This document shows, piece after piece, positions 6,517 to 53,736 of a stretch of 64,000 nt of DNA (position 1 is its first letter; every line of letters starts with the position of its first letter). Both the position numbers and the translations under genes were made by a program. Source of the DNA: Pirellulales bacterium (GTDB lineage Bacteria > Planctomycetota > Planctomycetia > Pirellulales > JAEUIK01); contig JBFXAH010000008.1 in NCBI GenBank assembly GCA_050184475.1, positions 100,533 through 164,532 of the forward strand. Direction: 5' to 3'. Below the pieces are notes generated by a model. The model searched no databases and was not told where the DNA came from. It saw nothing but the letters and a program-made list of their open reading frames with translations.

Positions 6517-6861
6517 AACAAAAGCCGCGCTGGGAAGGGAATGCTTGCGGTGAACGGCTCGTAGGCGGGTGGGTGGTGCGAGCCGTCGAACTAAGGAGAT
6601 TCTGAGCCGAGACGTTATTTTATTCACCTGCGCGATGGCCAACAACGATTTCGCCCCCCCGGCCCGGGAGTGTCTCGCCGTGGCGGGAGTGCTGAGCGGG
6701 AGCTCTCGATTCGCCCTGGGCCCGGTCATCGGTCACTTCGAGCCCCCCCTGCCCTGCCCCGGTCCATTGCCCGCGGTTTCGGCGTCGACTACAACGACGC
6801 GAACTTTGGCCTATCCCCTGCCGTGCTGGCCAGGAACCGACCCGCGAGTGAGAAGCCACGC

Positions 6862-7881
6862 ATGCCCGAGCGTATGAAAGCCGCGCACATCGTCTCCCCG
6901 CGGCGGCTGGAAATTGTCGACGTGCCGGTTCCCAACCTGGACGAAATCCCTGGCGAACCGATCCTGGTGAAGCTGCACGCCGGCGTGCTCTGTGCATCGG
7001 ACTTTCCGCGCTGGCAAGGGGGCGCGTTCAACGTCACCTTTCCGCGGCCGGTGGGCGATAGCCTGCACGAATGCGTCGGCGAAGTGGTCGCCAGCCGCTC
7101 TCCCAAGTTTCGCCCCGGCGATCTCACGCTGGCGATCCCGCCCGATCAGCGCGGGCTGAGCGAATTGTTCGTGGCCGACGGCTCGATGGCGGTGCCGCTT
7201 CCGGTGGTCCCCGGCTTTCCGCGCGAGCGGCTGATCTTGGGGCAACCGCTGGGAACGATCCTCTGGGCGGCGCGCAAGCTCCCCAATTTGCTGGGCCTCG
7301 ACGTGGCGGTCGTCGGCCAGGGGCCGATCGGACTGATGTTCGATCACTTGCTGGCCAACATGGGCGCGCGGCGCGTCATCGCGCTCGACAGGATCGAACA
7401 CCGCCTACAGGTGGCGCGCAGGATGAAAGCCACGCACTCGGTGAACGTCGGCGACGGCGATCCGGTCGCGGCCGTGCGCGAAATCACCGACGGTCTCGGC
7501 GCCGACGTGGTGGTCGAAGCGGTCGGCCATCAGGTCGAATCGGTCCACCTGGCGATCTCGCTGGTCCGCAAGCACGGCACCGTGTTGGCGTTCGGCGTCC
7601 CCGACGAGCAGTTCTACCCGCTCCCGGTGTGGGACCTAATGCTGCAGAACATTCGCTTCATCTCTTCGATCCACCCGCAAGTGGAGCGCGACTTACCGCT
7701 GGCGTTGGCGATGATCTTGGAAGGTCGCATGGACGTCGCGCCGCTGGTCACGCATCAATTCGCCTTCGAGCAATCGCAGGCGGCCTTTGAGCTGGCGGTC
7801 GAGCGGCGCGACAATCCGATCAAGGTGTTGCTGACGAGCGACACTTCGAGCTGGGAGAAGCAGCCGGAGCTAAATCCTTAG
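6862..7881 (+). CDS. Zn-dependent medium-chain dehydrogenase/reductase
   Basis: GVLCASD, LHECVGEV, GQGPIG Rossmann motif, GADVVVEAVG. Confidence 0.85.
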   Translation: MPERMKAAHIVSPRRLEIVDVPVPNLDEIPGEPILVKLHAGVLCASDFPRWQGGAFNVTFPRPVGDSLHECVGEVVASRSPKFRPGDLTLAIPPDQRGLSELFVADGSMAVPLPVVPGFPRERLILGQPLGTILWAARKLPNLLGLDVAVVGQGPIGLMFDHLLANMGARRVIALDRIEHRLQVARRMKATHSVNVGDGDPVAAVREITDGLGADVVVEAVGHQVESVHLAISLVRKHGTVLAFGVPDEQFYPLPVWDLMLQNIRFISSIHPQVERDLPLALAMILEGRMDVAPLVTHQFAFEQSQAAFELAVERRDNPIKVLLTSDTSSWEKQPELNP

Positions 7882-9075
7882 CTCACGCGCGCGGTCTTCG
7901 CCACTTCGCCCCCCCCTGCCCTGCCCCAGCACGCGCTCGTATACCCGGCGAATTTCCCGCGTCATGTGCAAGTGATCGAAGCGCTGTCGGCAGCGCTCGC
8001 GCCCCGCGCTGCCCAAACGCTCGCGCAGCGCCGGGTCGGCCGCCAGATCGACGATCGCCCCGGCCAGCGGTTCGACCGACTGCGGCGGCAACAAGTAGCC
8101 GGTCTCGCCAGGCAACACCACTTCGCGCGCGCCGTCGATGTCGTAGCTCACCACCGGTTTGCCGGCCAGCAGCGCTTGAGGCAACGTGCGCGCGAGCCCT
8201 TCGCGCAAACTCGTATGGACAAGCAGGTCCATGGCCCCCAGGTAAGCGGGTATCTCCGTCGGCGGCACCAGGCCGGCGAAGCAGAACTTGTCGGCCAGCC
8301 CGCGGCGGGCGATTTCGGCCGTGAGCTGATCGCGCAAGATGCCGTCGCCGACCAGCAGAAACCGCACGCGCGGATCGCGCGCGACCACTTGCTCGGCAGC
8401 CGCGATCAGGTACTCGTGCCCTTTGAGATGAAACAGGCGGGCGATCTTGCCCACCACGACATGCTCGGGGGCGTAGCCGAGTCGCGCCCGCATGGCGGCG
8501 CGATGATCGTCGGCTGCCAGGAAGGGCTCGATCTCCATGCCACTGTAGATCGTCGTAAAGCGGTCGCGCGGCGCCACGTCGGCGGCGACCATCAAGTCGG
8601 TCATGGCGTCTGCCACCGAGATGAAGGCGTCGGTGCGCCCCGCCGCCCACCGTTCGCAAGCTTGATAGAAGCGGCGCGACGCCGCGCCCTGATAGGCGTG
8701 CCACGGCGCGCCATGCACCGTGTGCACGATCGCCGGCACGCCGAGCGCGCGGGCTGCCGCGCGCCCCAGAATTCCACCTTTGGCACTGTGCGTGTGGACG
8801 ACTTGCGGGCGGAACTTGTCCAGAGCCTTCTTCAGGTGGCGATACGCCGTGGCGTCGCGCAGCGGATGAATTGCGCGGCGCAGCTCGGGAATAATCTCTG
8901 TCGGCACCTGCCGGGCCGCGGCGCGCTCGAGCAAACTCCCTTCGGGCCCGAGCGGAGGGCCGGTCACCAGTAGCACGTCGTCGCCATGCTCTCGCAGCAG
9001 ATCTTCGCAGTTGAGCAGCGTATTTTCCTGCGCTCCGCCGAGAATCAATCGCGTGATGACGTGAGCGATCCGCAT
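7870..9075 (-). CDS. Glycosyltransferase family 4
   Basis: HVITRLILGGAQ, HTHSAKGG, KGHE and EGL...QAL..GKPVV motifs. Confidence 0.9.
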   Translation of the reverse strand: MRIAHVITRLILGGAQENTLLNCEDLLREHGDDVLLVTGPPLGPEGSLLERAAARQVPTEIIPELRRAIHPLRDATAYRHLKKALDKFRPQVVHTHSAKGGILGRAAARALGVPAIVHTVHGAPWHAYQGAASRRFYQACERWAAGRTDAFISVADAMTDLMVAADVAPRDRFTTIYSGMEIEPFLAADDHRAAMRARLGYAPEHVVVGKIARLFHLKGHEYLIAAAEQVVARDPRVRFLLVGDGILRDQLTAEIARRGLADKFCFAGLVPPTEIPAYLGAMDLLVHTSLREGLARTLPQALLAGKPVVSYDIDGAREVVLPGETGYLLPPQSVEPLAGAIVDLAADPALRERLGSAGRERCRQRFDHLHMTREIRRVYERVLGQGRGGRSGEDRARELRI

Positions 9076-9079
9076 GGTG

Positions 9080-10012
9080 TTATTTTAGTTCCCCCTCACC
9101 CCCAACCCCTCTCCCACCAGGGGAGAGGGGAGAATCCGTGATGTCTGGAACGTCTGCACCCCCCTGCCCTGCCCCGTCGCCAGTCGGCTGTTCGTAGTCG
9201 ACGCGCAGCAGGAATAGTCCCTGGGGGGGCGCCGTGGGTCCGGCCGCGCGGCGATCGAGCGCGGCCAGCGCCTCGGCCGGCCAGTCGATCGGCCGTGCGC
9301 CGCGCCCGACTTCGACCAGTGTGCCGACGATCGCGCGGACCATGTTGTAGAGAAAACCGTCGGCCTCGATCTCGATCGTGATCAGCCGCCCTTCATCGCC
9401 GGTGGCCAGTTTCAAGGGCAACACGTCGCGGGCCGTGACCTCATGGGCGGCACGGGAGCGACCCCCCTGCCCTGCCCCGCCGCGCTCGACCGACAATGCG
9501 AAGACCGTGCGGACACTGGTTTGCTTGTTCGGCCAGTGCGATTCGAAACTGCGAAAGTCATGTCGGCCGATGAGCGGTTGTGCCGCCGCGCGCATGGCGT
9601 GGACGTTCAATTGGCCGAAGACGTGCCAGGCGTAGTGTCGCGCGAAGATGTCGCGCACCGGCCCGTCGTAAAGCAGATAGCGATAGCGCTTGCGGACCGC
9701 GTCGCGAATCGCGTGAAAGCCGGACGGGGCATCTTCGACGTCGCGCACCACGATATCGGCCGGTAGCCGCGCGTTCAGGGCCGAGCGAACGGCGTCGACG
9801 CCGAGTTGCGAATTCGTCTCGACGCTGACGACTTGCCCCAGTGCGTGCACTCCAGCGTCGGTCCGGCCGCTGGCAGCGGTGCGCACGGTCTCGCCGGTGA
9901 CCTGCTGCCAGGCGGTTTCGAGCGCGGCTTGCACGGTCGGCTGGTCCGGTTGCACTTGCCAGCCGGCGTAGGCCGTGCCGTCGTAGGCCAGCACTAGCTT
10001 GAGCGTGCGCAT
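9080..10012 (-). CDS. truA: tRNA pseudouridine(38-40) synthase
   Basis: YDGTAYAGWQ, GRTDAGVHA, FLYNMVR and TAPPQGL motifs; start at ATG 10012. Confidence 0.96.
   Translation of the reverse strand: MRTLKLVLAYDGTAYAGWQVQPDQPTVQAALETAWQQVTGETVRTAASGRTDAGVHALGQVVSVETNSQLGVDAVRSALNARLPADIVVRDVEDAPSGFHAIRDAVRKRYRYLLYDGPVRDIFARHYAWHVFGQLNVHAMRAAAQPLIGRHDFRSFESHWPNKQTSVRTVFALSVERGGAGQGGRSRAAHEVTARDVLPLKLATGDEGRLITIEIEADGFLYNMVRAIVGTLVEVGRGARPIDWPAEALAALDRRAAGPTAPPQGLFLLRVDYEQPTGDGAGQGGADVPDITDSPLSPGGRGVGGEGELK
9091..9131. repeat. Palindromic REP-like element inside the 3' end of truA
   Basis: Perfect 10-bp stem CCCCTCTCCC-accag-GGGAGAGGGG (9106-9130), preceded by CCCTCACCCCCAAC; translated as SPLSPGGRGVGGEG. 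Confidence 0.7.
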
Positions 10013-10055
10013 AGTGAGAAGTTCGACGGACGTCGGCAGCGCTATCGGCGGTGGG

Positions 10056-11081
10056 CTACCGCGCGGCGGCGGTCTGGCGGGCACGGCTCAGCAACAGTTC
10101 GGCGATCTGCACGGCGTTGGTCGCTGCCCCCTTGCGGAGGTTGTCGCTCACGCACCAGAAGGCCAATCCGTTGGGGCTCGACAGGTCTTCGCGAATTCGC
10201 CCGATGAATGTCTCGTTGCGGCCATCGCAGGTGCTAGGCATCGGGTACTGCTTCGCCTCGAGATCGTCGACCACCACCAGCCCCGGCGTGGCGGCGAATA
10301 ACTCGCGGGCCGCGGCGACCGACAGCTTGCGCTCGGTCTCGACCAGGATGCTCTCGCTATGGCAGTTGGCGACCGGCACGCGCACGCAAGTCGGGCAGAC
10401 TTGGATCGATTCGTCGCCGAGGATCTTCCGCGTCTCGCGGACCATCTTGATCTCTTCCGACGTATAGCCCTGCTGCTTCGACGAACCGATTTGCGGAATC
10501 AGATTGAAGGCGATCGGATAGGCGAAGGTCTCGTATTGGTATTGGTCGCCCGCCAGGTGGGCGCGGCTCCCTTCTTCCAGTTCGCGCGCGCCCGACAAGC
10601 CGGCCCCGCTCGTGGCCTGATAGGTGCTGACGATCACGCGCCGCACCCGGGCCGCGTCGTGCAACGGTTTGAGCGCCTGCACCATTTGCGTGGTCGAACA
10701 GTTGGGGCTGGCGATGATGCCGCGATGATTGTCGACCGCCTCGGGATTGACCTCGGGAATCACCAGCGGCACCTGCGGGTCCATTCGCCAGTAGCCGCTC
10801 TCGTCGATGACCACGGTGCCGTGCTGGACGGCCGCCGGCGCGAAATCGCGGGCGACTTCATCGGGCGTGCTACCGATCGCCAGGTCGATGTCGGCGAAGG
10901 CGTCGGGCGTCAACTCTTCGATCGTGTGCTGCCGGCCGCGAAAGCTGATCTGGCCCCCGGCCGAACGCCGCGAAGCCAGAAACTTGACTCGCTCGATGGG
11001 GAACGCGCGCTCTTCCAACAGAGCCAGGATGATCCGACCGACGGCGCCGGTGGCCCCGACGATGGCCAAAGATTCGTACAC
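10056..11081 (-). CDS. asd: Aspartate-semialdehyde dehydrogenase
   Basis: GATGAVG, PNCST, TYQATSGAG and DNLRKGAA motifs; GTG 11081 preceded by a purine-rich RBS. Confidence 0.96.
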   Translation of the reverse strand: MYESLAIVGATGAVGRIILALLEERAFPIERVKFLASRRSAGGQISFRGRQHTIEELTPDAFADIDLAIGSTPDEVARDFAPAAVQHGTVVIDESGYWRMDPQVPLVIPEVNPEAVDNHRGIIASPNCSTTQMVQALKPLHDAARVRRVIVSTYQATSGAGLSGARELEEGSRAHLAGDQYQYETFAYPIAFNLIPQIGSSKQQGYTSEEIKMVRETRKILGDESIQVCPTCVRVPVANCHSESILVETERKLSVAAARELFAATPGLVVVDDLEAKQYPMPSTCDGRNETFIGRIREDLSSPNGLAFWCVSDNLRKGAATNAVQIAELLLSRARQTAAAR

Positions 11082-11198
11082 GCTTCCTTCTCCCGTTTGA
11101 GCGTAATTGACCGGCCTGGCGCCCGCGAGGTTCGCGACGAGCGCCGAATAAACCAATATACGTCGCGAGCCGCCGGGCCGTAAGGAGCGGTCGGGGCT

Positions 11199-11525
11199 TC
11201 ACCCGGAGTGAGTGCCGCGGTCCTGGTCGCCGAAGCGCGCAAACCGCCGTCGAACTTGGTTAAGGGTGATCGTAAGCAGCAGCGCGCAACCGGGCGCAAA
11301 CAACCACCAGTTCAACTGTCGCTCGCCGATCTGACACCAGCCGTCCAGACCCTTGATCCAGACAACCTTCTCGGGACCACAGACCGTGAAGTCTCCCGCA
11401 AAGAATGGCTCGGAATAGCGCCAGACATGAGTTGGTTGGGCTGCAGTCAAAGCCACAACCGCAATGATGCCGAAGGCATGTCGCAGAGTGAATTGACGCC
11501 AGTAGCGAACAGCCCGACCATCCAT
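11199..11525 (-). CDS. Small hypothetical membrane protein
   Basis: N-terminal WRQFTLR plus hydrophobic stretch and a second TM segment; fills the gap between the HTTM gene and asd. Confidence 0.5.
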   Translation of the reverse strand: MDGRAVRYWRQFTLRHAFGIIAVVALTAAQPTHVWRYSEPFFAGDFTVCGPEKVVWIKGLDGWCQIGERQLNWWLFAPGCALLLTITLNQVRRRFARFGDQDRGTHSG

Positions 11526-11581
11526 GCCGGCAGTGTACTGATGGTACTTGCGGCAGGATACGCCAGTTCCCTCGCGCGGCG

Positions 11582-12682
11582 CTACCCGACTTTCGACGTC
11601 GGATTGCCGCGAGGGCGGCGCGTGCGGACCGTCGGTGGCGTGGACGAGGCCGCCGATGCGCCGGTGGCCGTCGGGGTCTGCGCTTTACCGCGATTGGCCG
11701 CAGGCGATCTCTCCTCCGCGGAGATACCCCCCTGCCCTACCCCTTCGATGACGCGGCGCACCACCCACGGCGAGATGAACGCCGCGTTGCCGATCAGCAT
11801 CACCAGCCCGAAGGTGATCATGCCCAGCCCAAAAGCGATCCCCAGGTGAAGCGGAATGGCCAGAGCCAACACGATTGGGCGGGTGAGGCGCGGCCAGACC
11901 AACGCGCAGTACGAAACTTCCCAGGCGATGGTCACGTGCGTCATCACGGCCACGGTCAGCGGCCACGTGGCCAGCCAGGTGAGTTCGATCGATTGATACT
12001 CGAGATTGGCCACCGCCCCCCACAGGGCGCTGCCGTTCCACCAGGCCGGACCTTGCAGTTTCGAGATGCCGGCGAAGAAGTAGATCACGCACATGTGCAA
12101 CTGCATGAGCCGCGTGGCGACGTTCGCACCCACGCTCGGAGGTACCGGCAAGTCGGCCGCGTCTCGGTGCCGCGTCGCCAACCAGCGATCGACCGAGTAG
12201 CGCGCCCCGCAAGGGCCAAACATCAAGTACATCGCCAGCAGGCCATTGATCTGGTCGAGGCCGAACAAGCTTCCCGGCAGGCGATTCACGTACGAGACGG
12301 TGATCAGCCAGGCAAGCACCGACACGATCCGGCTATGCCAGCCGATTGTCAGCATGGCGAACACCACCAGGGCGGCGATGTGCACGGCCCAGAGCATTTC
12401 CTCGGAGTTGATCAGCCAGAAGTAGCTCCAGGCGAACGAGGTCTCGCCCGACATCGAGTTGAGATACGTCTGCACGGCCTCGGCCTGCAGCCAACTGTTG
12501 GGCCCGAGAAAGTCGTCGAGCCCGCGCGTCCACACCAGGTGGGTGTAGAACAGCATGGCGCCGGCGAGGATGCGAATCAGCGACAAGGTCGCCGGGTCGA
12601 CAGCCGAGAACCAGAAACGGTCCCAACCGGCCACGGCGCCGCGCGCCAATTCGCGACAGTAGTCCGTCAGCAGGCGAATCAT
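11582..12682 (-). CDS. HTTM-domain membrane protein (SdpB/LinG/vitamin-K carboxylase-like)
   Basis: WDRFWF...LSLIRI, YSVDRW, RLMQLHMCVIYFFAGISKL.G..WWNG and HLGI motifs. Confidence 0.85.
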   Translation of the reverse strand: MIRLLTDYCRELARGAVAGWDRFWFSAVDPATLSLIRILAGAMLFYTHLVWTRGLDDFLGPNSWLQAEAVQTYLNSMSGETSFAWSYFWLINSEEMLWAVHIAALVVFAMLTIGWHSRIVSVLAWLITVSYVNRLPGSLFGLDQINGLLAMYLMFGPCGARYSVDRWLATRHRDAADLPVPPSVGANVATRLMQLHMCVIYFFAGISKLQGPAWWNGSALWGAVANLEYQSIELTWLATWPLTVAVMTHVTIAWEVSYCALVWPRLTRPIVLALAIPLHLGIAFGLGMITFGLVMLIGNAAFISPWVVRRVIEGVGQGGISAEERSPAANRGKAQTPTATGASAASSTPPTVRTRRPRGNPTSKVG

Positions 12683-13416
12683 AGGTCTTCCGCCGTGTAG
12701 CTCTTCGAAAACAGTTCGACGTATAACGACGCGTCGGAGAGCGTCTTCACGCGCTGCTGGGCGATCTCCTGCGGGAACGGCAGGTTATGCCGCACCAGCC
12801 GCAGGGTGACTCGCTGGGCATTGTGCTTGCGCAGCAGGTGCGTGGCATACGAGCGGCAATAAGCATCGAACAATGCTTGCTGCGCGGCGAGGAATTGCTG
12901 CGCGCTTTCCGACGGCGGTAGTGCCTCGCGGCCAGGCACCGCTTCGATTCCGGCCAGTGCGTCGCGACGCTGCGCGGCTGCGGTCGTCGCGGTGTCTCCC
13001 CCGGCCGGCGGCGACGCCATGGGGGCGTCGCCATTCACGTTGCCATACAGCATGTTCAGGAATTCGGTGAGCATGAAGTGGCGGTGGTACAACAACCGCG
13101 GCTGCTCTTCCTTCAAGTTCGGGATTTCGCCCGCGAATGTATCGCCGTTGGGCAATTCGACTTCGTAGCGCACCAGGTGGCTGGGCCCTGGTTCGGGCGC
13201 GAAGAAGTGATAGCCGTGATTCAGAAACGTCGCTTCGACGTAGGGGCGGAAAACTCGCCACATCCCCTGAGCCAGCGGCGAACCTTCGATCGACCAGGGG
13301 CAAACGACCAGCGCCGTGACGTGCAGCGCCAACAGCACGCTGAGCACGATCTTCAGCGGAGGGCTGATCCGCGTCGTCGGCCCAGCGGCCGCCGGGGAGT
13401 GTCGGGAGTCGGCCAT
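12679..13416 (-). CDS. HTTM partner protein (DUF5819/SdpA-like), single N-terminal TM
   Basis: TM segment LLALH followed by PY...LNHGYHFFAPEP; stop overlaps the HTTM start (ATGA). Confidence 0.7.
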   Translation of the reverse strand: MADSRHSPAAAGPTTRISPPLKIVLSVLLALHVTALVVCPWSIEGSPLAQGMWRVFRPYVEATFLNHGYHFFAPEPGPSHLVRYEVELPNGDTFAGEIPNLKEEQPRLLYHRHFMLTEFLNMLYGNVNGDAPMASPPAGGDTATTAAAQRRDALAGIEAVPGREALPPSESAQQFLAAQQALFDAYCRSYATHLLRKHNAQRVTLRLVRHNLPFPQEIAQQRVKTLSDASLYVELFSKSYTAEDL

Positions 13417-13580
13417 CGTGCGCGATCCTTCGTCAAGCGGCTAGTGGCGAGCCAGGCGTCGGTCGTCGTTGCGGCGACCCACGGCCACGGCCGGTACGAT
13501 GCGCCTTATCGCGGGCAAAGGCAATCCCCGCTCGCCTGTCGCACTTATCGACCGACCGCGGGTGTCGATCGATTTGCAGA

Positions 13581-13623
13581 AAACAAGAAAACCCTCGCAC
13601 GGGTTGGGTCCCGTGCGAGGGTT
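13581..13623 (-). terminator. Intrinsic terminator downstream of the TIGR03000-type gene
   Basis: 14-bp perfect stem AACCCTCGCACGGG/CCCGTGCGAGGGTT (13590-13623) followed by a T-rich tract on the minus strand. Confidence 0.8.
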
Positions 13624-13737
13624 ATGACTTTCGTGCGTTCGGTCCCGGTCGCAGCGAAAGCTTGCCCGTGGGGCGAGCTTTCAGTGCGGCGGAGCCGCGT
13701 TCTCACAAGCGGGGCTGCTAATTAGCCCGGCTTGTAA

Positions 13738-14778: not shown

Positions 14779-14897
14779 CTGTTTGTTGCTCCCCAAAAAG
14801 GCTTCGAAGATTGACTTTGGTGTGCGTTCTTACCGTCAGAACATAGCAACCGTAGCTTGCAATTCAAGAAACTGCGTAGTTTTTTTTGATCGCGGGA

Positions 14898-14914
14898 TGT
14901 GCGAATTTCGCACA
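14898..14914. promoter_or_regulatory. Palindromic operator-like site in a divergent promoter region
   Basis: TGTGCGAA-T-TTCGCACA perfect inverted repeat in AT-rich intergenic DNA; TTGACA at 14932-14937. Confidence 0.5.
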
Positions 14915-15120
14915 AGATATAACGGTTGCTATTGACAAAATCGGACCTATTTGAGCTATGCAAAGCACCGTTTTGCTTGCCCAGTCAGCCTAATCGCTAT
15001 AACCGGCAACTGGCGTTGGGCCGGCCCGTGCGGCTCGCTAGACTCGTCCACCCGCCGCGCGCGACCCCCCCCTGCCCTACCCTGTTGTGCCCACCCCCAA
15101 GGTCTTGGAGCCAGGCGACG

Positions 15121-16323
15121 TTGCTAGCAGCACGACCATCGCACCACGAGTCTCGGGGAGCCGCGCCCCTGCCCCGCCAGGCGGCACGACCCGGTCGCGC
15201 ATCCCCCTTGCGCCGCTGGCCATGGCAGTTGTTGGCGAGCGCCGGCCTGCTGGGTGCGATCGGACTGGCCGCCATCGCCCGCAGCCAGTCGCTGGCCGAC
15301 GGCGCGACGAACTTCTGGTCGATGCAGCTTGTGTGGTGGTGCGTGGCGATCGCCGTCGGCGGGGCTCTCACCACGGTGAGCAGTCAGCTCGTGTGGCGCT
15401 GGAGCTACGTGGCCTTCGCCGGCACGCTCGTGCTGCTGGCGTTGGTTTTCTTGTTCCCCGCCCGCTATGGCGCCCATCGCTGGGTCCGCTTTGGAGCGGT
15501 GGGTGTGCAGCCTTCGGAACTAGCCAAGATTGCCTACGTCCTAGCGCTGGCCCGCTACCTGATGTACCGCGACAACTACCGCCGGCTGCGCGGGCTGCTT
15601 TGGCCACTAGTGCTGACGCTCGTCCCGCTGGTGCTCGTGCTGCGCGAGCCCGACCTGGGGACGGCGCTGGTGTTCGTGCCGCTGTTGTTCGCGATGCTGT
15701 GGGCGGCCGGCGCGCGATTGCGCGACCTGGCGGTCGTGGCGCTCGTGGGGCTATTGACCGTGCCGGTGTTGGCCTCGCAGATGAGTCGCGAACAGCGCTC
15801 GCGCATCACGGCGCTGGCCGAACAGACGGGGCCCGGCGAGCGGCCCAGCGACGACGGCTACCATCTGCATCAATCCAAGCAGGTGATTGCCCTGGGGGGC
15901 ATCTGGGGGAGCGCCGCGACCGGACAATGGGTCGACGATGCTGGCGCCTATCGCCTGCCGGTCGCGCACAGCGATTTCATTTTCTCGATCGTGGCCGAAC
16001 GCTTCGGACTGGTGGGGGCCGGCGTGGTGCTGCTGTTGTACTGGTTGCTGGTGACTGCCTGCGTGCGAATCGCGGCCGGCACGAACGATCCTTTCGCGCG
16101 GCTGGTGGCCGCCGGCATTGCCACGCTGCTGGCGGTCGAAGTAGCGATCAACACGGCGATGACGGTCGGACTGGCGCCGGTGACCGGCTTGTCGTTGCCG
16201 CTGATGAGCCACGGCGGCAGCGGGCTGGTGGCGCACGTCGCGGCGCTGGGGCTATTGGTTCGCGTGGCGCTGCGCGATGAGTTGGACGTGTCGCCGGCGC
16301 CATTCCGCTGGTCGCCGGGATAA
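15121..16323 (+). CDS. rodA: SEDS family peptidoglycan glycosyltransferase (RodA/FtsW)
   Basis: RW...VQPSELAK, EPDLGTA, HSDFIF and LPLMSHGGS motifs; start codon uncertain; RodA versus FtsW not resolved. Confidence 0.8.
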   Translation: MLAARPSHHESRGAAPLPRQAARPGRASPLRRWPWQLLASAGLLGAIGLAAIARSQSLADGATNFWSMQLVWWCVAIAVGGALTTVSSQLVWRWSYVAFAGTLVLLALVFLFPARYGAHRWVRFGAVGVQPSELAKIAYVLALARYLMYRDNYRRLRGLLWPLVLTLVPLVLVLREPDLGTALVFVPLLFAMLWAAGARLRDLAVVALVGLLTVPVLASQMSREQRSRITALAEQTGPGERPSDDGYHLHQSKQVIALGGIWGSAATGQWVDDAGAYRLPVAHSDFIFSIVAERFGLVGAGVVLLLYWLLVTACVRIAAGTNDPFARLVAAGIATLLAVEVAINTAMTVGLAPVTGLSLPLMSHGGSGLVAHVAALGLLVRVALRDELDVSPAPFRWSPG

Positions 16324-16843: not shown

Positions 16844-17003
16844 TGCGACACCCTCCTTGAACGACAGATTGCTATGCCTCGTGTTGCCGGGGGATTCGAT
16901 GTCAAGGTTCGATTGAGAAGTTTTCCGCGCGCAGTGCGCGGCGCCACGCGCGGCCAGCCAACTGCACAGGCGAAGGCTGGCACCATGCGACGTCCTGCAC
17001 CGC

Positions 17004-18551: not shown

Positions 18552-18615
18552 TCCGGTTCCTGTTCGCTGAACGGAGAGGCCCGCAGTCGTCGCGCGACGT
18601 TCCCCGCGCCCCGGT

Positions 18616-19812: not shown

Positions 19813-19921
19813 GGCAAAGAACCACTTGCGTCGATCGGCCAGCGGTGTCAGCCAGGCTTGCGTTGCGATCGTTGCTCAACTCCCAAGAAGGAATCGGCCT
19901 GGAGAGGGACGCAGCATACGA

Positions 19922-28765: not shown

Positions 28766-29344
28766 ATGAGCACCGCCACGAAGCGCCCCCCTGCCCTGCC
28801 CCGTCGCCGCCGCGCCGCAGCCGCCCGCCGCGGGTCGACCGCTACGAACGGCGCCAGCAAGAGTGTTGTCGCTGCGCCGCGCCCCCGCCGCTTCGACTCT
28901 CCGCAGCAGCAGGCTTATCTCAATCTGTGGCGCACCTACGACCGCTTGCGAGCGCACGAAGACGCCCTCTTCGGCCGCGTTGACCTCACGGCCCAGCAAT
29001 ACAACGCCCTGCGGCTGTTGCGGGCTGCCCATCCGGCCCCCGTGGCCACGCTCACGTTGGCCGCGCGGTTGATCTCTCGGGCGCCCGACATCACCCGCCT
29101 GGTCGACAAGCTGGCGGACCGCGGGCTGGTCGCGCGCGATCGCCGGCCAGAGAATCGCCGCGTCGTCGAAGTTTCGATCACGCCAGCCGGCTTGGCCCTG
29201 CTTGATCAACTCGCCGCCGAAGTGCGTCAATGCCACCAGCGGCAACTCGGGCATCTCTCGGCCCGCGAACTGAAGCAACTCGTTGCCTTGCTGGAAAAAG
29301 CGCGGCAGCCACACGAAGAACAAGACAGCATCTGGAACACATAA
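28766..29344 (+). CDS. MarR family transcriptional regulator
   Basis: LT.QQYN.LR.L, DITRLVDKL..RGLV.R and NRRVV.V.IT..G motifs. Confidence 0.92.
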   Translation: MSTATKRPPALPRRRRAAAARRGSTATNGASKSVVAAPRPRRFDSPQQQAYLNLWRTYDRLRAHEDALFGRVDLTAQQYNALRLLRAAHPAPVATLTLAARLISRAPDITRLVDKLADRGLVARDRRPENRRVVEVSITPAGLALLDQLAAEVRQCHQRQLGHLSARELKQLVALLEKARQPHEEQDSIWNT

Positions 29345-37044: not shown

Positions 37045-37049
37045 TTGAC

Positions 37050-38174: not shown

Positions 38175-38183
38175 CGACGCGGT

Positions 38184-39356: not shown

Positions 39357-39401
39357 CGCGAAGACCTCGCCGAGGATCAGAACTGGAACCGAAGCCTGTG
39401 C

Positions 39402-41857: not shown

Positions 41858-41899
41858 CGATGTGATGGGTGATTTCGAGTTCGACAAAGCAACCGCGAC

Positions 41900-42997: not shown

Positions 42998-43135
42998 GCT
43001 AGCAGCGATTTGCCACATTCCCGCGGGTGGCTTAGCATCATCGGTAGCCGTGGCGCGGATGTTGATCGCAGCGAGTCACCGCGATCGTCCGTTGCTCGCG
43101 GCAGGGCACTACGCTCACCGGGGAGGTCGTTGACG

Positions 43136-45670: not shown

Positions 45671-45718
45671 AGCGCGGCTATAAATCGCGATGATGCGTGG
45701 CGCCCGCCGGCGCTCTGA

Positions 45719-46729
45719 TTACCGCCGCGCCTGCATCGCTTCGGCGGCGTAGCGATTCGGGTCAGCCTTGAAAGCGTCGCGCGATTGTGCGCTGGAGAAA
45801 AGGAATACGCGCCCCTCGTAGAACATGCCGAACTCGCGGCGGCCGGGGACCGCTTGCCCCTGGTGCATGGCTACCACCGGATCGTCGCCGCCGGCGACCG
45901 GCGCATAACGATCGGGGTTCGCGAGAAAGTGATCGCGGGCCACGGCGGACGAGAACAAGTAGACCCGTCCGCGATGGATGGCGCCGAATTCCTGTTTGCC
46001 GCGCGTCCACAAATGCCGCTCGCAGAGGTCAACCGGGCAATAGCCCTCGAGCCCTGGCGCGGGTTGACCTGGCGGACCAGCTTGTGGCGCTGCGCCCGCC
46101 GGCGCTGCGGCGGCAGCCGCTTGGAAGGCGGCGCCCTGAACCGGCGCGCCCGGCTGCTGTGCCGGCGCCGGAGCGCTGTTCCAAGGAGCGACCATTCCGG
46201 TATCGTTCGCCGCTGGCGGCTGTGGGCCGGCGGCGGCCATTGGTTGTGGCGCGGCAACGGGTTGACCAGCCATGCCAGGCCCTGCTGCCGGATTCACTCT
46301 GCGCGCGGCCTGAGTCAAACGCGCCATGTGCGATTGCGGATCGTGAATGCCCTGCACGCGGTCGACGATTTGACCCGTGGGCGTGATGATCACTTCGGTC
46401 GGCAGCGCCGTCACGCCGTACTGCTGCAGAAGCTCGGGGTTGGCGTCGGAATTAATCTTCACCGGCACGTACATGCCGGAGAGTGCCTGGTGATAGCCGG
46501 GCTGCGCGTAGACTTCGTTTTCCATCTTCGTGCAGGCCGAGCACCAGGGAGCCCAGAAATGCACGAGCACCAGACGCCGCGACGAGTGGGCCGTTTGCTT
46601 GGCGGTTTCCAAGTCGGTCAGCCAAGGGCTCGTCGGTTCATCGGCGATGGCCGGCGCTGAGAGCATGACCACGGCCAGGCCGAAAACCGTTGCCAGAACC
46701 GTACGCGGGTGGGTGCCATGGATGGTCAT
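45719..46729 (-). CDS. Exported thioredoxin-family protein with C-terminal tandem YHS-like domains
   Basis: Signal peptide; WAPWCSAC; GYCPV...YLFSS...F.ANPDRY repeated twice. Confidence 0.85.
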   Translation of the reverse strand: MTIHGTHPRTVLATVFGLAVVMLSAPAIADEPTSPWLTDLETAKQTAHSSRRLVLVHFWAPWCSACTKMENEVYAQPGYHQALSGMYVPVKINSDANPELLQQYGVTALPTEVIITPTGQIVDRVQGIHDPQSHMARLTQAARRVNPAAGPGMAGQPVAAPQPMAAAGPQPPAANDTGMVAPWNSAPAPAQQPGAPVQGAAFQAAAAAAPAGAAPQAGPPGQPAPGLEGYCPVDLCERHLWTRGKQEFGAIHRGRVYLFSSAVARDHFLANPDRYAPVAGGDDPVVAMHQGQAVPGRREFGMFYEGRVFLFSSAQSRDAFKADPNRYAAEAMQARR

Positions 46730-46978
46730 CGTTCGACCCTCGACTGAATCAGATTGCTAGCGGTGGAATTCGGGCCGCGCGCGAACCCGGGTGGGGCGCT
46801 GGGGGCCACTCTTCTATCGGAAGTTGCGGGTCACTTAGGCTAGGAAAACTTTGCAGGTCGCAGCGATGGCAGCGGTCCCGCAACCGGGCGAGAAAAAACG
46901 AGCTAGCAATGGCCAGAGGGCCGATTTAGAATGTCGGCTAGGCCCGTGTGAGCGGGGGGATTTCTCCGCAACGACAGC

Positions 46979-47006
46979 TTGACACGGTGTGTGGGCAGGT
47001 TAAGAT
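46979..47006 (+). promoter_or_regulatory. Candidate sigma70-like promoter far upstream of rho
   Basis: TTGACA (46979) N16 TAAGAT (47001). Confidence 0.4.
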
Positions 47007-47791
47007 TCGCGTAGTTACCAACTTCCGCCCGGGCTCAAATTTGACCGTTTTGCCTGGTGCGGTGCTTGCATAGGCCCCTGGGTGAACCATTGGGCCGACG
47101 AACTCTCGATTGGTAGCACCGGCGGCCGCGATTTGATTGCGGTTCCAGAGCAGGGAACGCCGGGCATTCCAGCGGCTGACGAGTTGTCGGCGACCTCCTG
47201 TTAAGCGGACGCTTGAATCCGCCAGCAGCGAGGCAGGTTGCTGTGGGCCGCTCCGGGCGGTGTCAATCGCCGGGGGCAAAATCGCTTTCTACGGCCGGAA
47301 CCCGTTTCCGGCGTGCCGAATTTCGGATCCCGGCGCTGGATATGACTTTTTCGTCTCCTGGCTGCCTGTGGAGCGTCGCCGAATTCACTTCGGAGGCGCG
47401 ATACGCTCGCCGAGCACGCCCGTGGCTCGGCGCAAACAATATCTGGTGCTTTGCCCACGGCAACACTCAAGAATTCAGGCGACACCCAAGAATTCGGCTG
47501 TGACAAGGTACTAGTAGTCCGCGCCTGGCGCGCTCGCGAACTGAGATCGGCGGGCCCAGGCAGACCGCGTGCAGGTTGATGTGCTCTGCTGCTTGGCTTG
47601 AGGCAACCTCGCGCAATCGACGATTTTCGTGGTGATGCGAAACTCGTGGTCAGGCGGCCCATCGTGTGCGGCCGACTGCTCTGAGTAACGAACAAACCTG
47701 CCCCTGCACTTCGCATGGGCCACTGCCTGCGCAGGGCTTGGCGCTCGTCTGCGCCACGGTCGTGTCGGCGGTCATCTCTCCAGGTATCGGT

Positions 47792-49111
47792 ATGGGTAAG
47801 AAGAGAATGCGGCCCCGCCCTTATGGACGTCCCGGCGGGGGCCAAGGTGGCGGTCACGGTGGTCATGGTGGGGGCGGACGCGGACCGGCACGCGGCCGCG
47901 GTCGTCCGCGACCCAACTGGGAGAAGCAGGGGGACATTGGCGCCCCGGTCAGCGATACCGAGCCGGTGAGCGAGAACGGCGAGCCGGCTCCGCTCGAGGC
48001 CGCCAGCGGCGTGCTCGAACTGCACCCCAACGGCTACGGCTTCCTCCGCGACCCCAAGAACAACTACTCCCGCGAACGCACCGATCCGTTCGTTCCCGGC
48101 GCGATGATCGACAAGTTCCGCCTCCGCGAGGGACTGTTGATCAACGGCATGGTCCAGCACCATCGCAAGCAACAGGGGCCTCGGCTGCGCGAAATTCTCG
48201 ACATCGACGGTTGCGCGCCGGAGAACTATCCCAATATCAAGTCGTTCGACTCGCTCACGCCGATCAATCCCGAGAGCTGGCTGAAGCTCGAGACCGGCCA
48301 GAACCCGCTCAGCACGCGCGTGATGGATCTGCTCACCCCGCTGGGCAAAGGTCAGCGCGCGTTGATCGTCGCCCCCCCCCGCACCGGCAAGACGATCCTG
48401 CTGCAGCAGATCAGCCAGGCGATCTCGGAGAACTATCCGGGCGTCAAGCTGATCGTGCTGTTGATCGACGAGCGCCCCGAGGAGGTGACCGACTTCCGTC
48501 GCTCGACCACCGGCGAGGTCGTGGCCAGCAGCCTCGATCGCGACGTCGAAAGCCACGTGCGGCTCAGCCAGTTGATCATCGAACGCTGCAAGCGGCTGGT
48601 CGAATTGGGCAAAGACGTCTTCCTGTTGATGGATTCGATCACCCGCATGGCCCGCGCGTTCAACAAGTGGGTCGGCAATACGGGCCGCACCATGACCGGC
48701 GGTGTCGACGTCAAGGCGCTCGACATCCCCAAGAAGCTGTTCGCCACGGCCCGCGTCTTCGAAGAAGGGGGCTCGATCACCATCGTCGCCACGGCTCTGG
48801 TCGACACCGGCAGTCGCATGGACGAGCTGATCTTTCAAGAATTCAAGGGGACCGGCAACATGGAGCTGGTGCTCGACCGCAAGCTGGCCGACCGTCGCGT
48901 CTGGCCGGCGATCGACATCAGCCAGTCGGGCACGCGTCGCGAAGAGAAGTTGCTCGATGCCGACACGCTGCACGCCGTGACCATGTTACGACGCACGCTC
49001 AGCTCGATGCATCACGTCGACGCCATGGAGCAATTGACGTCGAAGCTCGGCAAGTTCAAATCGAACCGCGAGTTCGTCAAGCTCATCAGCGGCGCAGGCG
49101 CCCAAGAATGA
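47792..49111 (+). CDS. rho: Transcription termination factor Rho
   Basis: [43 protein letters not shown] and SGTRREE motifs; start at ATG 47792. Confidence 0.97.
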
Positions 49112-49221
49112 GCGATCGCAGGGCGTCGCTCAGCGGTCGTTTGATCTGTTGAGTGGATTCGCCGAGCGGCGCGAGATAAGCTGATCGTACGACCACCCGT
49201 GTGCGATCGCGAGAGTTCTCG

Positions 49222-52200
49222 ATGTCCGCTGCAGCACCGCGCGCCCGCCATTTGTATCGCCGCGCGGCCGTCAATGAGGCACTGTGCTGCCTGCTGTTCG
49301 CGCTCTCATGGCTCTGTTTCGACGTCCGCTCCGCGTTGGCAGACGAACCCGCCGCGCTCGCGGGACCATCCCTGGCTGCCGACGATCCCGCCGCCGAGGA
49401 ATTGCCCCGACTCGCCGCCGGCTTGATCGCCGAATACGTCAGCCAGCCGGCCGCCGGCGCCACGAACGCTTTGCGGTCGGCCGAACCGGTGCGCCGCGTC
49501 GATCCGGCCGTTGCCTTCGACTGGCGAAATGACGCCCCCGATGTGCGGTTGCCCCCCGGAGCATTTCGCGCGCATTGGAGCGGGCGACTCGCCGTGCCAG
49601 CCTTCGGCGGCTATCGCTTGCACGCGTACGCCGCCGGTCGCGTGGTGATTCGCCTGGCTGGCCAGACGTTGCTCGATGCCCGGTCCAACGAGCCCGCCTG
49701 GTTGACCGGCACGGCGATCGAACTCGACTACGGCTACCAGCCGTTGGAAGTCGAGTATCGGCCCGCTGGCGACCAGCCGCGGATCGCCCTGTTTTGGGCG
49801 GGGCCGGGTTTCGCGCTCGAGCCGCTCGGTCCGCAACACTTGTTTCACGATCCGGCGGCGACCCCTTCCGGCCGCTTCGAGCGCGGCCGCGACCTGGTGC
49901 AGGCGCTCGGCTGCGCCGCATGTCACGAGCTGCCCGAGGAGATCGATCCGCTTTCCGCGCCATCGCTCGATCGCGTGGCGGGCAACTTCGCGCCGGGCTG
50001 GATCGAACATTGGTTGACCGATCCGCGCGACGCGGCGCCCGAATCGCGGATGCCCGATTTGGGACTGAGCGCCGCCGACGCCCGCGCGATCGCCCGCTGG
50101 CTCGCGACCGAATCGAAAGCAGCCCAGACTTCGGCCGGCGCGGCGTCGCCGGATCGCCCCGCGACTACCGAGGCTGCGGCCCACGAACGAAAACCGCCAA
50201 CCAAGCCGAAGTCAAAAAACCGGCAAGACGAACCGCCGCCGACCACGCCAGTAGAACGTGGGCTGGCCCTGGTCCACACGCTCGGATGCCTGGCCTGCCA
50301 TCGCGTGGGGGTGCTTGGCACGCAGAGTCTTTACGACGGTGGTGATCTCACGGCGATCGCCGACAAGCGGCCGGCCGATTTCTTCGCCCGCTGGCTGGCC
50401 AATCCGGCGGCCATCAACGTCGGCCATCGCATGCCGGTGTTTCGGCTCAGCAATGCCGAGCGCGACGATCTTGCCGAGTACCTGGCGACGCTGCACGGCG
50501 CGCCGCGCGAACCGGCCGATCACACCGCGGCCCGCGACAGCGACGCCGGGGCAACGACCGACGCGAGACAATTGATTGAGCGGCATCACTGCGCGGCCTG
50601 CCATCAGATGCCCGACGCCATTGCGAAGCGGGCTGCGGTGGCTTCGCGGATCGCCGATGGCGCGAACTGGGAGGCAAGTTGCCTGGGCGATCCGCGGCCC
50701 CAGCGCGGGCAGCCGGGCTACCGCTTAGCTTCCGACGATGTCGCCGCGATTCGCGAGTATCTCACCCAGACAATGCGCGGCGCTCGGCCGAGCAGTTTCG
50801 ATCGCGGCCAGGCACTGATCGCGCGAAACAACTGCCTGGGCTGCCACGCCCGCGGCGGCGCTGCCGGCTTGAGCGCGCAAGCTGCGGCGATCGCCGAGTT
50901 GCTGCCGCAACTGGGGACGGCGCTGGGCGGATTGACACCTCCGCCACTCGACTCGGTAGGCGACAAACTGCACGAGCCGGCGCTGGCAGCGGCGATCAAG
51001 ACCAGTCGCGATCCACTGCGCCCGTGGTTGTCGGTGCGAATGCCGAGGTTCGACCTGGCCGACCTAGAAGTCGCGCTATTGGTCGAGCAGTTCGTGGCGA
51101 TTGATCGCATCCCCAGCGGCGCGCCGATCGAAGGTGCCGACTCCGCGCCGCCAGCGTCACTGACCGAGTTGGCCGGCGAATCGCTCCTCGCGCCCGGCGC
51201 CCGGCTGGTGACCAGCGACGGCTTTGGCTGCGCGAGCTGTCACCAGATCGGCAACGTCGAACCGCAGCGCAGCGAGCCTGGCACGCGCGGCGTCGAGTTG
51301 TCGCTCGTCGGCCAGCGCGTCCGCGCCAGTTGGTTCGATCGCTGGGTGCGCAACCCGGCCAGGATTGTCCCTCGAATCGAGATGCCCTCGGTGCAGCAGC
51401 CGGTGCGTGGCGTGTGCGACGAGCGGCTCGATTTGCAATTGGCCGCCGTCTGGACGGTCTTGAATCGCCCCGGCTTCAATCCACCCGAGCCGAACCCGGT
51501 GCGCGTGCTACGGCGGCGCAACCTACCCGACGAAGATGAGTTGCCGGTGTTCGTCCAAGACGTGTTCCAGATCGGCAATCGCAAGTTCGTCGACCCGCTG
51601 GTGATCGGTTTGCCGAATCGCCACAACCTGCTGTTCGATCTCGAGATGAGCCGGCTGGCCGGCTGGTGGATCGGCGACACGGCCCGGCAGCGCACCAAGG
51701 GCAAAAGCTGGCATTGGGAGCCTGGCGGGACGCTGGTGGCGCCGCTGCCCGACCAGGAGAACGCCGACGACGCCCCGGCGACCAGCGAGATGCTCTTGCT
51801 GCGCGGTGATGAAATCATCGCGCCGCAACGCGTCGGCCAGTCGCTGGCGCGTCTCGATCGGTATTCGCTCGATGGCCTGCTCAGCTACACCTTGCAGTAT
51901 GCGTTGCCGAGCAGCGAGTCATGCTCGCTGAATGTCACGGAGACCTTGCGTGACAATGCCGGCGGCGACTCGGACAATTCCAGCGGTTTTACGCGTCATT
52001 TCGAGGTCGTGGGAATCCCGCCGGGCTGGCAAGCGGTGCTGCGCCCTTGGAGCGGCGCGCAGTCTCGGCCACCGACGGTCGAAGACCATGGGCACGTGAT
52101 CCGCCTGGCCGGCGCGCTCGGCGACGCGCGTGTCACGGTGCGCCAAGGACAATTTGAATCTCTTCGCGGAAGCGAGTCCGACTTTGTCGTTCGCCCAGCG

Positions 52201-53736
52201 CCCGATCGCGATGGCAGCGTGAGGTTCGAACTCGAGTATCAAACCGACGCGGCGGTCGATCGCTACGTCGCGCCAGCCCCCATCGCCGACGGCCCGGTCG
52301 CGGTGAAGCTCGACGTCGTCCCCGGCTTCGCGGCAACGCAACTACCGCTCCCCCCCGAGATCATGCCGACGAGCATGGCCTGGCGCAACGACGGCGCGTT
52401 GGTGTTCACCTCGCTCAAGGGGCAAGTCTACGTCGCTCGCGACGACAACCACGACGAGCTCGAAGATCGGCTCGAGCTCTTCGCCGATGGGCTGGCCGCG
52501 CCGTATGGCATCGCCGCGTCTGGGGACGGGCAAGCTGGGTCCGTTGAAGTCATTCATAAACCCGCGCTCGTGAGGCTCTTGGATCTCGATCGCGACGGCG
52601 CCGCCGACTCGCTGGAAGTGCTCGCCTCCGGTTGGGGGCACACCGACGACTATCACGATTGGGCCGTCGGCCTGCCGCGCGCTGGCGAAGGAGGGTATTA
52701 CGCCGCCCTCCCCTGCCAGCAAGACGATCGCTCGCCGGCGGCGGCCTTGCTGCGCGGCCAGATCGTGCGCCTCGCGCCACCAACAGGGGACGCCCCGCAC
52801 GAAAACCGCCGCTGGTCGATCGAACCGCTGGCGGCCGGGTTGCGCTTTCCGATGGGGCTGGCCGTCGATCGCCGTGGCGAACTGTTCGCCAGCGACAATC
52901 AGGGAAACTACAACCCCTTCAACGAATTGAATCACATCGAAGCGGGCCAGCGCTACGGCTTTATCAACAAGCTCGAAGGCCGGCAACTCGCCGCGCGGCG
53001 AGAGAAGCCGCCGGCGTTTCGCGCCGCGGCGATCGAGATCCCCCATCCCTGGACGCGCAGCGTCAACGGCATCGTGTTCTTGGACACCCCCCCTGCCCTG
53101 CTGAAAAAATCTGGCCGTGAAACTTTTGGCCCATTCGAGGGACATTTAGTCGGCTGCGAGTACGACACGCGGCGCTTGATCCGCATGTCGCTCGAACGGA
53201 TCGATGGCGTCTATCAGGGAGCCGCCTACCCGTTCAGCGTGCCGCCGGCGACCGCCGACTCGCCGACGTTCGAGGGACCGGTCGCTTGCGCCGTTTCGCC
53301 CGCCGGCGATCTGTATGTCGGCAACCTGCGCGATAGCGGCTGGGGCGCCGGCGCCAACACCGGCTCGATGGTGCGGCTGCGTCCTACTGGCGACTGGCCA
53401 TTGGGGATCGCCGCCGTGTCGATCGCGCCACGCGGCTTTATCGTGCGCTTCACCGGCGCGGTCGACGCCGACCGCGGAGCCAGCGCCGAGAATTACGCCA
53501 TCGAATCGTATCGGCGGATTTCCACACCGGAATATGGCGGGCCCGACGTCGACCGTCGCCGCGAAGCAATTCGCTCCGTAACGCTCGCCGATGATCATCG
53601 CGAAGTGCGGCTCGAACTGGGCGACCTGCGTACCGACTCCGTGTACGAGATTCGCGTGCGTGGGCTTGGCCCAGGCGGTGCCGCCCTGGTGCCCGACGAG
53701 GCGCATTACACGGTGCGCCGCATGCCTCGCGAGTAA
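49222..53736 (+). CDS. Large exported multi-heme c protein (PA14-like domain, 5 CxxCH, C-terminal beta-propeller dehydrogenase-like domain)
   Basis: F.AHWSG PA14-like motif; CAACH, CLACH, CAACH, CLGCH and CASCH each with downstream Met motifs or linkers; GLRFPMG..DNQG propeller motif. Confidence 0.85.
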   Translation: MSAAAPRARHLYRRAAVNEALCCLLFALSWLCFDVRSALADEPAALAGPSLAADDPAAEELPRLAAGLIAEYVSQPAAGATNALRSAEPVRRVDPAVAFDWRNDAPDVRLPPGAFRAHWSGRLAVPAFGGYRLHAYAAGRVVIRLAGQTLLDARSNEPAWLTGTAIELDYGYQPLEVEYRPAGDQPRIALFWAGPGFALEPLGPQHLFHDPAATPSGRFERGRDLVQALGCAACHELPEEIDPLSAPSLDRVAGNFAPGWIEHWLTDPRDAAPESRMPDLGLSAADARAIARWLATESKAAQTSAGAASPDRPATTEAAAHERKPPTKPKSKNRQDEPPPTTPVERGLALVHTLGCLACHRVGVLGTQSLYDGGDLTAIADKRPADFFARWLANPAAINVGHRMPVFRLSNAERDDLAEYLATLHGAPREPADHTAARDSDAGATTDARQLIERHHCAACHQMPDAIAKRAAVASRIADGANWEASCLGDPRPQRGQPGYRLASDDVAAIREYLTQTMRGARPSSFDRGQALIARNNCLGCHARGGAAGLSAQAAAIAELLPQLGTALGGLTPPPLDSVGDKLHEPALAAAIKTSRDPLRPWLSVRMPRFDLADLEVALLVEQFVAIDRIPSGAPIEGADSAPPASLTELAGESLLAPGARLVTSDGFGCASCHQIGNVEPQRSEPGTRGVELSLVGQRVRASWFDRWVRNPARIVPRIEMPSVQQPVRGVCDERLDLQLAAVWTVLNRPGFNPPEPNPVRVLRRRNLPDEDELPVFVQDVFQIGNRKFVDPLVIGLPNRHNLLFDLEMSRLAGWWIGDTARQRTKGKSWHWEPGGTLVAPLPDQENADDAPATSEMLLLRGDEIIAPQRVGQSLARLDRYSLDGLLSYTLQYALPSSESCSLNVTETLRDNAGGDSDNSSGFTRHFEVVGIPPGWQAVLRPWSGAQSRPPTVEDHGHVIRLAGALGDARVTVRQGQFESLRGSESDFVVRPAPDRDGSVRFELEYQTDAAVDRYVAPAPIADGPVAVKLDVVPGFAATQLPLPPEIMPTSMAWRNDGALVFTSLKGQVYVARDDNHDELEDRLELFADGLAAPYGIAASGDGQAGSVEVIHKPALVRLLDLDRDGAADSLEVLASGWGHTDDYHDWAVGLPRAGEGGYYAALPCQQDDRSPAAALLRGQIVRLAPPTGDAPHENRRWSIEPLAAGLRFPMGLAVDRRGELFASDNQGNYNPFNELNHIEAGQRYGFINKLEGRQLAARREKPPAFRAAAIEIPHPWTRSVNGIVFLDTPPALLKKSGRETFGPFEGHLVGCEYDTRRLIRMSLERIDGVYQGAAYPFSVPPATADSPTFEGPVACAVSPAGDLYVGNLRDSGWGAGANTGSMVRLRPTGDWPLGIAAVSIAPRGFIVRFTGAVDADRGASAENYAIESYRRISTPEYGGPDVDRRREAIRSVTLADDHREVRLELGDLRTDSVYEIRVRGLGPGGAALVPDEAHYTVRRMPRE

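Follow-up and report, generated by a model that had tools for sequence, protein, structure and literature searches.

The 64,000-nt stretch analysed here (the window) belongs to contig JBFXAH010000008.1 of a Pirellulales bacterium (contig C8 of source genome G000, C8:100,533-164,532; the assembly comprises 6.79 Mb in 56 contigs and is 98.3% complete), and it harbors repeated copies of a 12-nucleotide motif, CCCCCCTGCCCT, together with a candidate dif site, as listed in Table 1 with the genes that carry or adjoin them. Eight exact copies of the 12-mer were detected, all eight on the plus strand, against an expectation of 0.01 per window, and none of 100 dinucleotide-preserving shuffles attained eight copies, in agreement with an earlier reading made from the letters alone (the sequence-only reading), which had pointed out eight strand-polarised copies. 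Six of the eight lie in the first 16 kb, as that reading had also observed, and this clustering arises because the candidate dif, which that reading had overlooked, stands at window 3246-3273. The motif is most likely a direction signal steering FtsK toward dif inside the window.

Read on the G-rich strand, the 12-mer becomes AGGGCAGGGGGG, which is mostly embedded in the longer GGGYAGGGCAGGGGGG, made up of two overlapping GGGNAGGG octamers and then extra Gs. The 15 sites found in G000 (13 exact copies and two with one mismatch) share the common unit GGG[C/T]AGGGCAGGGGGG, with GGGCAGGG contained in 15 of 15. The sequence-only reading had proposed a polar signal resembling the FtsK-orienting polar sequences (KOPS), often as two overlapping KOPS, and this description is upheld by a core that is exactly GGGCAGGG and by the direction of all 15 copies toward dif. 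The shorter CCCTGCCC copies that it placed at 2163 and 15167 (plus strand), and the opposite one at 55899 (minus strand), are likewise all present. Altogether, 21 GGGNAGGG octamers inside the window read toward dif and 4 away from it.

Table 1. Candidate dif, 12-mer copies and octamers in the window (for motif copies the strand is that of the G-rich reading)
Feature	Window position	Strand	Direction and distance	Context
Candidate dif (XerC arm, 6-bp centre, XerD arm), ACGTCCGATAA-TGTTTC-TTATGTTCGGT	3246..3273 (C8 103,778-103,805)	-		read in place
GGGCAGGG octamer (CCCTGCCC on plus strand)	2163..2170	-	away from dif, 1.1 kb off, XerD-arm side	intergenic between two divergent open reading frames
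Composite copy, minus strand reads GGGGCAGGGCAGGGGGG	6744..6760	-	toward dif, 3.5 kb off	N-terminal part of plus-strand Zn-dehydrogenase frame
Composite copy	7911..7927	-	toward dif	C-terminal end of minus-strand GT4 glycosyltransferase gene
Composite copy	9159..9175	-	toward dif	inside minus-strand truA-type pseudouridine synthase gene
Composite copy	9462..9478	-	toward dif	second copy within the same truA-type gene as the 9159 copy
Composite copy, GGGTAGGG overlapping GGGCAGGG	11727..11743	-	toward dif	minus-strand HTTM-domain gene
Composite copy, GGGTAGGG overlapping GGGCAGGG	15067..15083	-	toward dif	N-terminal part or upstream of plus-strand FtsW/RodA-family frame
Plain GGGCAGGG octamer (CCCTGCCC on plus strand)	15167..15174	-	toward dif	
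Composite copy	28786..28802	-	toward dif, 25.5 kb off	start of plus-strand MarR-family frame
Single 12-mer copy	53088..53099	-	toward dif, 49.8 kb off	plus-strand 1518-aa cytochrome c protein frame
GGGCAGGG octamer	55899..55906	+	away from dif, 52.6 kb off	octamer density there near genome background

Across the whole 6.79-Mb assembly the exact 12-mer occurs 13 times, every copy on C8, with none in the remaining 55 contigs (6.5 Mb). The eight plus-strand copies span C8 107,276-153,620, and the five remaining exact copies, at C8 91,252, 92,269, 93,362, 96,202 and 98,447, were observed on the opposite (minus) strand, 2-9 kb left of the window; the 1-mismatch copies at C8 90,810 and 99,348, also on the minus strand, follow the same inward rule. 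On the G-rich strand the direction is therefore inward in 15 of 15 copies (sign test p = 6e-5), all of which aim at a stretch that runs from C8 99.4 to 107.3 kb.

The candidate dif falls within the 8.8-kb interval where the 12-mer changes strand (chance placement of a unique site 0.0013), so that the polarity flip at dif named by the sequence-only reading as its own test was indeed observed. The site is a 28-mer of 11-6-11 layout with an inner ATAA/TTAT half-palindrome, and its dif-type core, ATAA-N6-TTATGT, has exactly one match in 6.79 Mb, at C8 103,783. Compared with the dif sites that Kono et al. 2011 (PMC3025954) give, its identity is 17/28 for E. coli, 18/28 for B. subtilis and 17/28 for F. 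alni, and it is in layout, similarity to other dif sites and single copy number that the candidate agrees with a dif. The dif is nearly identical in five relatives and in 64 Planctomycetota-type loci among the matches listed, with the conserved form AACGTCCGATAA-TGT[T/C]TC-TTATGT[T/C]CGG. For the Planctomycetes, the survey results given by Kono et al. record a failed prediction (0 of 1 genomes), and no paper on KOPS or dif in Planctomycetes was found in full-text literature searching, where subscription papers may hold one.

A steep profile around dif was observed on C8 for the GGGNAGGG octamer, with toward:away counts of 2:2 at 0-3 kb from dif (3.3 toward copies per 10 kb), 23:1 at 3-15 kb (9.6), 5:1 at 15-30 kb (1.7), 6:0 at 30-50 kb (1.5), 8:3 at 50-100 kb (0.8) and 3:1 at 100-190 kb (0.34), against a background outside C8 of 0.36 per strand per 10 kb. 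The enrichment at 3-15 kb is 27-fold, and the background level is reached by about 100 kb. The exact 12-mer ranges from about 13 kb left to about 50 kb right of dif, its nearest copies lie 5.3 kb left and 3.5 kb right, and 11 of the 13 stand at 3-15 kb. Within the ±50 kb of G000's own dif, GGGCAGGG ranked first of 3,380 octamer pairs for convergent polarity (25:2). Outside C8, GGGNAGGG in G000 displays no contig-level polarisation (chi2 32.0, df 30, p = 0.37), unlike textbook KOPS, and because its strand counts are homogeneous among those contigs the signal in G000 is focused on dif, not replichore-wide. The replichore-polarised architecture signal suggested by the sequence-only reading is thus not what G000 displays, with its 12-mer confined to the neighbourhood of dif and its GGGNAGGG unpolarised elsewhere; the corollary of a leading minus strand could apply only right of position 3273, and then on the assumption that replication ends near dif.

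The copies were placed relative to genes by Pfam-confirmed frames; GC content at third codon positions was on its own ambiguous at several sites, the frame at C8 95,525-97,297 has no Pfam match, and the site at C8 92,269 is counted as presumably intergenic. The C-rich strand is the sense strand at 7 of the 15 copies and the antisense strand at 4 (GT4, truA twice, HTTM), with 3 copies in intergenic or unresolved placement and 1 in an ambiguous frame. Several reading frames are used, and the dif-directed orientation is found in 15 of 15 copies irrespective of gene strand. An explanation by gene direction was rejected, as both gene strands and intergenic DNA carry copies that are all dif-directed, which sustains the sequence-only reading in holding orientation to be independent of gene direction. 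Its assertion that copies occur across frames and on both gene strands is supported by the Pfam frames, with a correction of detail, the 6744 copy lying in the Zn-dehydrogenase frame and the GT4 gene holding the 7911 copy. An FtsW/RodA/SpoVE-family (cell cycle protein) frame at window 14923-16320 on the plus strand, 12 kb from dif, has a motif copy near its start.

These placements also bear on the possibility that the motif has no function and is a by-product of strand-biased mutation, a dispersed repeat or a repeated peptide motif. A dispersed repeat element was rejected, the flanks of the 13 exact copies being unrelated, which speaks against a mobile repeat, and the differing reading frames, both gene strands and intergenic DNA do not suit a peptide motif or any other origin of this kind. 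The same explanation can call upon a mild general excess of G-rich words toward dif, seen in the control word GGGANGGG when loci from public genomes were pooled. A scan of public contigs, one genome per species, for the dif core gave at least 120 stretches, of which DNA was obtained for 80, and all locus counts refer to these 80. The 64 loci with the ACGTC (Planctomycetota-type) arm formed the pooled set, their labels including Pirellulaceae, Pirellulales, Thermoguttaceae, Planctomycetaceae, Gemmataceae, Kuenenia and Omnitrophota; the 16 without that arm, with labels including Acidimicrobiia, Bacteroidota, Firmicutes and one each of Omnitrophota, Phycisphaerales and Anaerolineales, were set aside, and their GGGNAGGG octamers read toward dif 32 times and away 14 times.

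In the 64 listed loci, GGGNAGGG reads toward dif 417 times and away 43 times (91% toward), whereas the control GGGANGGG gives 96 and 58 (62% toward), and the 12-mer, present in 23 of them, gives 53 toward and 0 away. Among the 60 loci with any GGGNAGGG, a toward majority was observed in 54, an away majority in 3 and a tie in 3. An unbiased ranking for convergent polarity placed GGGCAGGG first of 27,710 octamer pairs (295:17), the base before the octamer is A in 63% of dif-directed copies compared with 9% of the background, and a second octamer overlaps 139 of the 295 dif-directed GGGCAGGG copies but none of 216 in the background. Genomes in which blastn aligns no more than half of the 20 kb compared around dif still have the arrangement, and its retention across flanks that align only in part argues for selection. 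With the control words of these loci and of relative G007 (below), the explanation without function is close to refuted and must be regarded as highly improbable.

Relatives of the same order gave a comparable picture. The 12-mer was detected in 30 of the 31 genomes searched (G000 and 29 of 30 relatives), where a reversed control word occurs 0-2 times per genome, and in all five relatives with both orientations on one contig (G001, G007, G008, G010 and G019) the dif core lies inside the interval of 12-mer strand change. On the XerC-arm side, 6 of 6 genomes compared have a composite site 3.4-4.7 kb from dif, with partial synteny. In G007, the sole near-complete relative sampled (36 pieces of 20 kb from a 6.75-Mb contig, about 11%), GGGNAGGG counts are 33 plus and 12 minus left of dif and 7 plus and 27 minus right of it (Fisher p = 3.9e-6), while six control words are flat, and the octamer is polarised there at megabase scale. 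The same counts (33:12 and 7:27) come roughly to the share of more than 75% leading-strand copies that PMC3384302 gives for KOPS, with the leading strand of G007 assumed. In G006, of the same family, 23 copies of the 12-mer (5 plus, 18 minus) are distributed among 12 or more contigs, all copies on any one contig having the same polarity, and in G001, like G000, the 12-mer is limited to the dif region; the extent of the signal differs between lineages.

Proteins expected of such a system are encoded in G000. FtsK is represented by one 1208-aa frame (G000:C17, L171:669-4292, minus) with matches to PF13491, PF17854, PF01580 and PF09397 (4TM, α, motor and γ), XerD by a match of 348.8 bits, which exceeds the curated cut-off, and a further Xer paralogue by one of 320.1 bits to the XerD model. 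FtsZ was not matched in the genome, at its 98.3% completeness, in line with the sequence-only reading, which expected FtsK kept and FtsZ lacking. Neither Tus (PF05472) nor RTP (PF02334) was matched in G000 at this completeness, and the control genomes of E. coli and B. subtilis do match. In alignment to 2VE8 and 2J5P, solved KOPS-binding domains, the γ recognition helix reads IGYGRAARLIDYMA against IGYNRAARxIExME. The γ domain is C-terminal in FtsK of E. coli and P. aeruginosa; the frame in G000 runs about 150 residues past its γ domain, which ends at residue 1057.

In E. coli, FtsK γ recognises GGGNAGGG, the hexamer loads on one side and translocates to dif, and XerCD resolves dimers there (PMC2680272, PMC3384302). 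Set beside the KOPS of E. coli, V. cholerae and P. aeruginosa as those two papers present them, the system in G000 has an identical core, GGGCAGGG, and is alike in inversion at dif, independence of gene strand, FtsK γ and XerD, and the points that sequence can address, namely the core word, the inversion at dif, an FtsK with γ, XerD and a second Xer paralogue, fit a putative KOPS system. It seems probable, on this analogy, that the motif is a KOPS-type FtsK-orienting polar sequence, arranged as two opposed arrays reading toward dif. Its usage differs from that of E. coli, where, by Table 1 of PMC3384302, KOPS number about 1 per 12.6 kb over the whole genome, at a skew of 0.91, and 1 per 11.6 kb around dif. 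The local density in G000 is about ten times that of the E. coli dif region and falls steeply, without genome-wide skew, and most sites are composites 12-17 nt long. The genome-wide over-representation and more than 75% leading-strand copies by which PMC3384302 characterises KOPS were not observed in G000. The architecture imparting sequences (AIMS) of Hendrickson and Lawrence, as described in PMC3384302, are skewed octamers whose bias rises toward the terminus, and GGGCAGGG is reported there to act as one in most Proteobacteria, in a survey of 40 genomes; the rise toward dif is far steeper in G000. The SpoIIIE recognition sequences (SRS) of B. subtilis (GAGAAGGG) and the KOPS of L. lactis (GAAGAAG) are treated in PMC3384302 as equivalent polar guides whose sequence varies by phylum, and the motif described here differs from both, the Planctomycetota keeping the proteobacterial form.

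If the mechanism resembles that of E. coli and P. aeruginosa, a membrane-anchored FtsK hexamer would recognise the motif through its winged-helix γ domains, the motor would load on one side of it and pump DNA until dif arrives at the division or bud site, and XerC and XerD would there resolve chromosome dimers. The dense zone that flanks dif at about 3-15 kb in both directions, where octamers stand at about one per kb before thinning to background by about 100 kb, would serve as the landing zone. FtsK is quite likely to be the reader, a grading that takes into account the lack of genome-wide skew in G000 and its divergent recognition helix.

Two opposed groups of a long (12-17 nt), nearly invariant site within tens of kb of dif would also suit a replication fork trap, in which an unknown terminator protein would bind the copies as polar sites of Ter type, so that forks could enter the dif region but not leave it. 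The fork traps of E. coli and B. subtilis have such a geometry of opposed groups, so that the geometry of the Tus-Ter and RTP-Ter systems around the terminus or dif does not discriminate them from KOPS, and a long invariant site suits a dedicated sequence-specific protein better than a loosely read 8-mer KOPS does. A fork trap nevertheless seems improbable, since neither Tus nor RTP was found in G000, the core is exactly the KOPS octamer, the octamer is polarised over megabases in relative G007 and the 12-mer stands on many contigs in G006, neither of which is expected of a local trap, and the selected unit across the 64 listed loci is GGGCAGGG or (CAGGG)n, with no fixed long site.

Another terminus-organising factor, or a DNA structure such as a G-quadruplex on the G-rich strand, might act in place of FtsK, and for this speak the G-rich tracts, the 3 of 15 sites that fit the canonical four-tract pattern (four runs of at least 3 G with loops of 1-7 nt) and a γ recognition helix unlike those of known GGGCAGGG readers. 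Such a reader or structure is quite improbable, as 12 of the 15 sites fall outside the canonical pattern, many dif-directed copies elsewhere are single octamers with two G-tracts only, and two fixed features, the C-A that separates the G-tracts and the A that precedes the first of them, suggest base-specific reading by a protein, for which no candidate other than FtsK is known. The G-quadruplex was accordingly rejected as a general explanation.

Several points weigh against a KOPS-type signal read by FtsK. Binding by γ and directional loading on the motif are inferred by analogy; of R1300, E1303 and E1306, the residues mutated in KOPS-blind E. coli FtsK (PMC2680272), only R is identical in G000, with E1303 aligned to D, E1306 to A and the N of IGYNRAAR to G; and the absence of contig-level polarisation outside C8 points the same way. 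The 64 loci come from related species and their arrangement is partly syntenic, so that the counts overstate independence, and a few wrong-way octamers lie less than 2 kb from dif. The position of the replication terminus at dif is likewise inferred. GC skew is weak on C8 and patchy in the 36 pieces of G007, where its sign is wrong over 1.2 Mb to the right of dif, and it was dropped as an independent terminus marker, counting neither for nor against. DnaA-family matches in G007 lie at 3,148,391-3,148,846 (the best) and 1,773,682-1,774,155, both on the same side of dif at 3,918,402, and the best stands 0.77 Mb from dif with no flip of octamer polarity. As an origin marker dnaA was set aside, its matches not being opposite dif, and the origin of G007 is probably not next to dnaA because octamer polarity is unchanged there. 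In the 36 pieces, octamer polarity reverses at two places only, one being dif and the other lying somewhere across the ends of the contig, more or less opposite dif.

On the TTATGT (XerD-arm) side of dif, 5 of 6 genomes compared have a single wrong-way GGGNAGGG octamer at a distance of 0.7-1.2 kb, namely G000 (window 2163-2170), G001 (L043/L044), G007 (L039), G008 (L047) and G019 (L046). Among the 64 listed loci, away-pointing octamers at most 2 kb from dif number 16 on the XerD-arm side and 6 on the other (binomial p = 0.015).

A more elaborate form of the KOPS-type proposal, rather doubtful when its parts are taken jointly, is that in FtsZ-less budding Planctomycetota such as G000, genome-wide KOPS guidance has been replaced by a high-affinity landing pad for FtsK. 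Tandem overlapping (CAGGG)n-G sites, packed at 3-15 kb to the left and right of dif, would make up this pad, with a sparser zone beside dif; the wrong-way octamer conserved on the XerD-arm side, about 1 kb from dif, might cause overshooting pumps to collide or turn back, so that XerD would be approached from the productive side; and GGGCAGGG would be read by a γ helix without two of the three KOPS-reading residues of E. coli, through convergent evolution or a different reading mode.

What is new in these observations is the KOPS core word in a new phylum, the composite sites and the steep dif-focused array, the kind of signal itself being already known. The Planctomycetota gain a concrete conserved dif site, in a phylum without a previously described dif or guiding signal, and with it a likely FtsK-guiding motif; the role of FtsK in division without FtsZ is of interest and can be tested by means of dif and the polar array. 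The convergence point can be used to orient and order contigs when a Planctomycetota assembly is fragmented, GC skew being a poor guide there, and the combination of a γ-Proteobacteria octamer, a divergent recognition helix and a steep focus on dif is informative on the evolution of KOPS recognition and usage.

The same dif-type core with convergent GGGNAGGG was observed under the labels Anaerolineales (9:0), Kuenenia (8:0) and Omnitrophota (9:1 in 3 loci) (L093, L069, L065, L089, L107), and the arrangement may extend beyond the class Planctomycetia, or some labels of metagenome-assembled genomes may be wrong. In the last 5 kb left of dif, small membrane-protein frames were observed, one of them histidine-rich and on the minus strand (L001 14587-15285 and 16011-17123; C8 98.6-101.1 kb).

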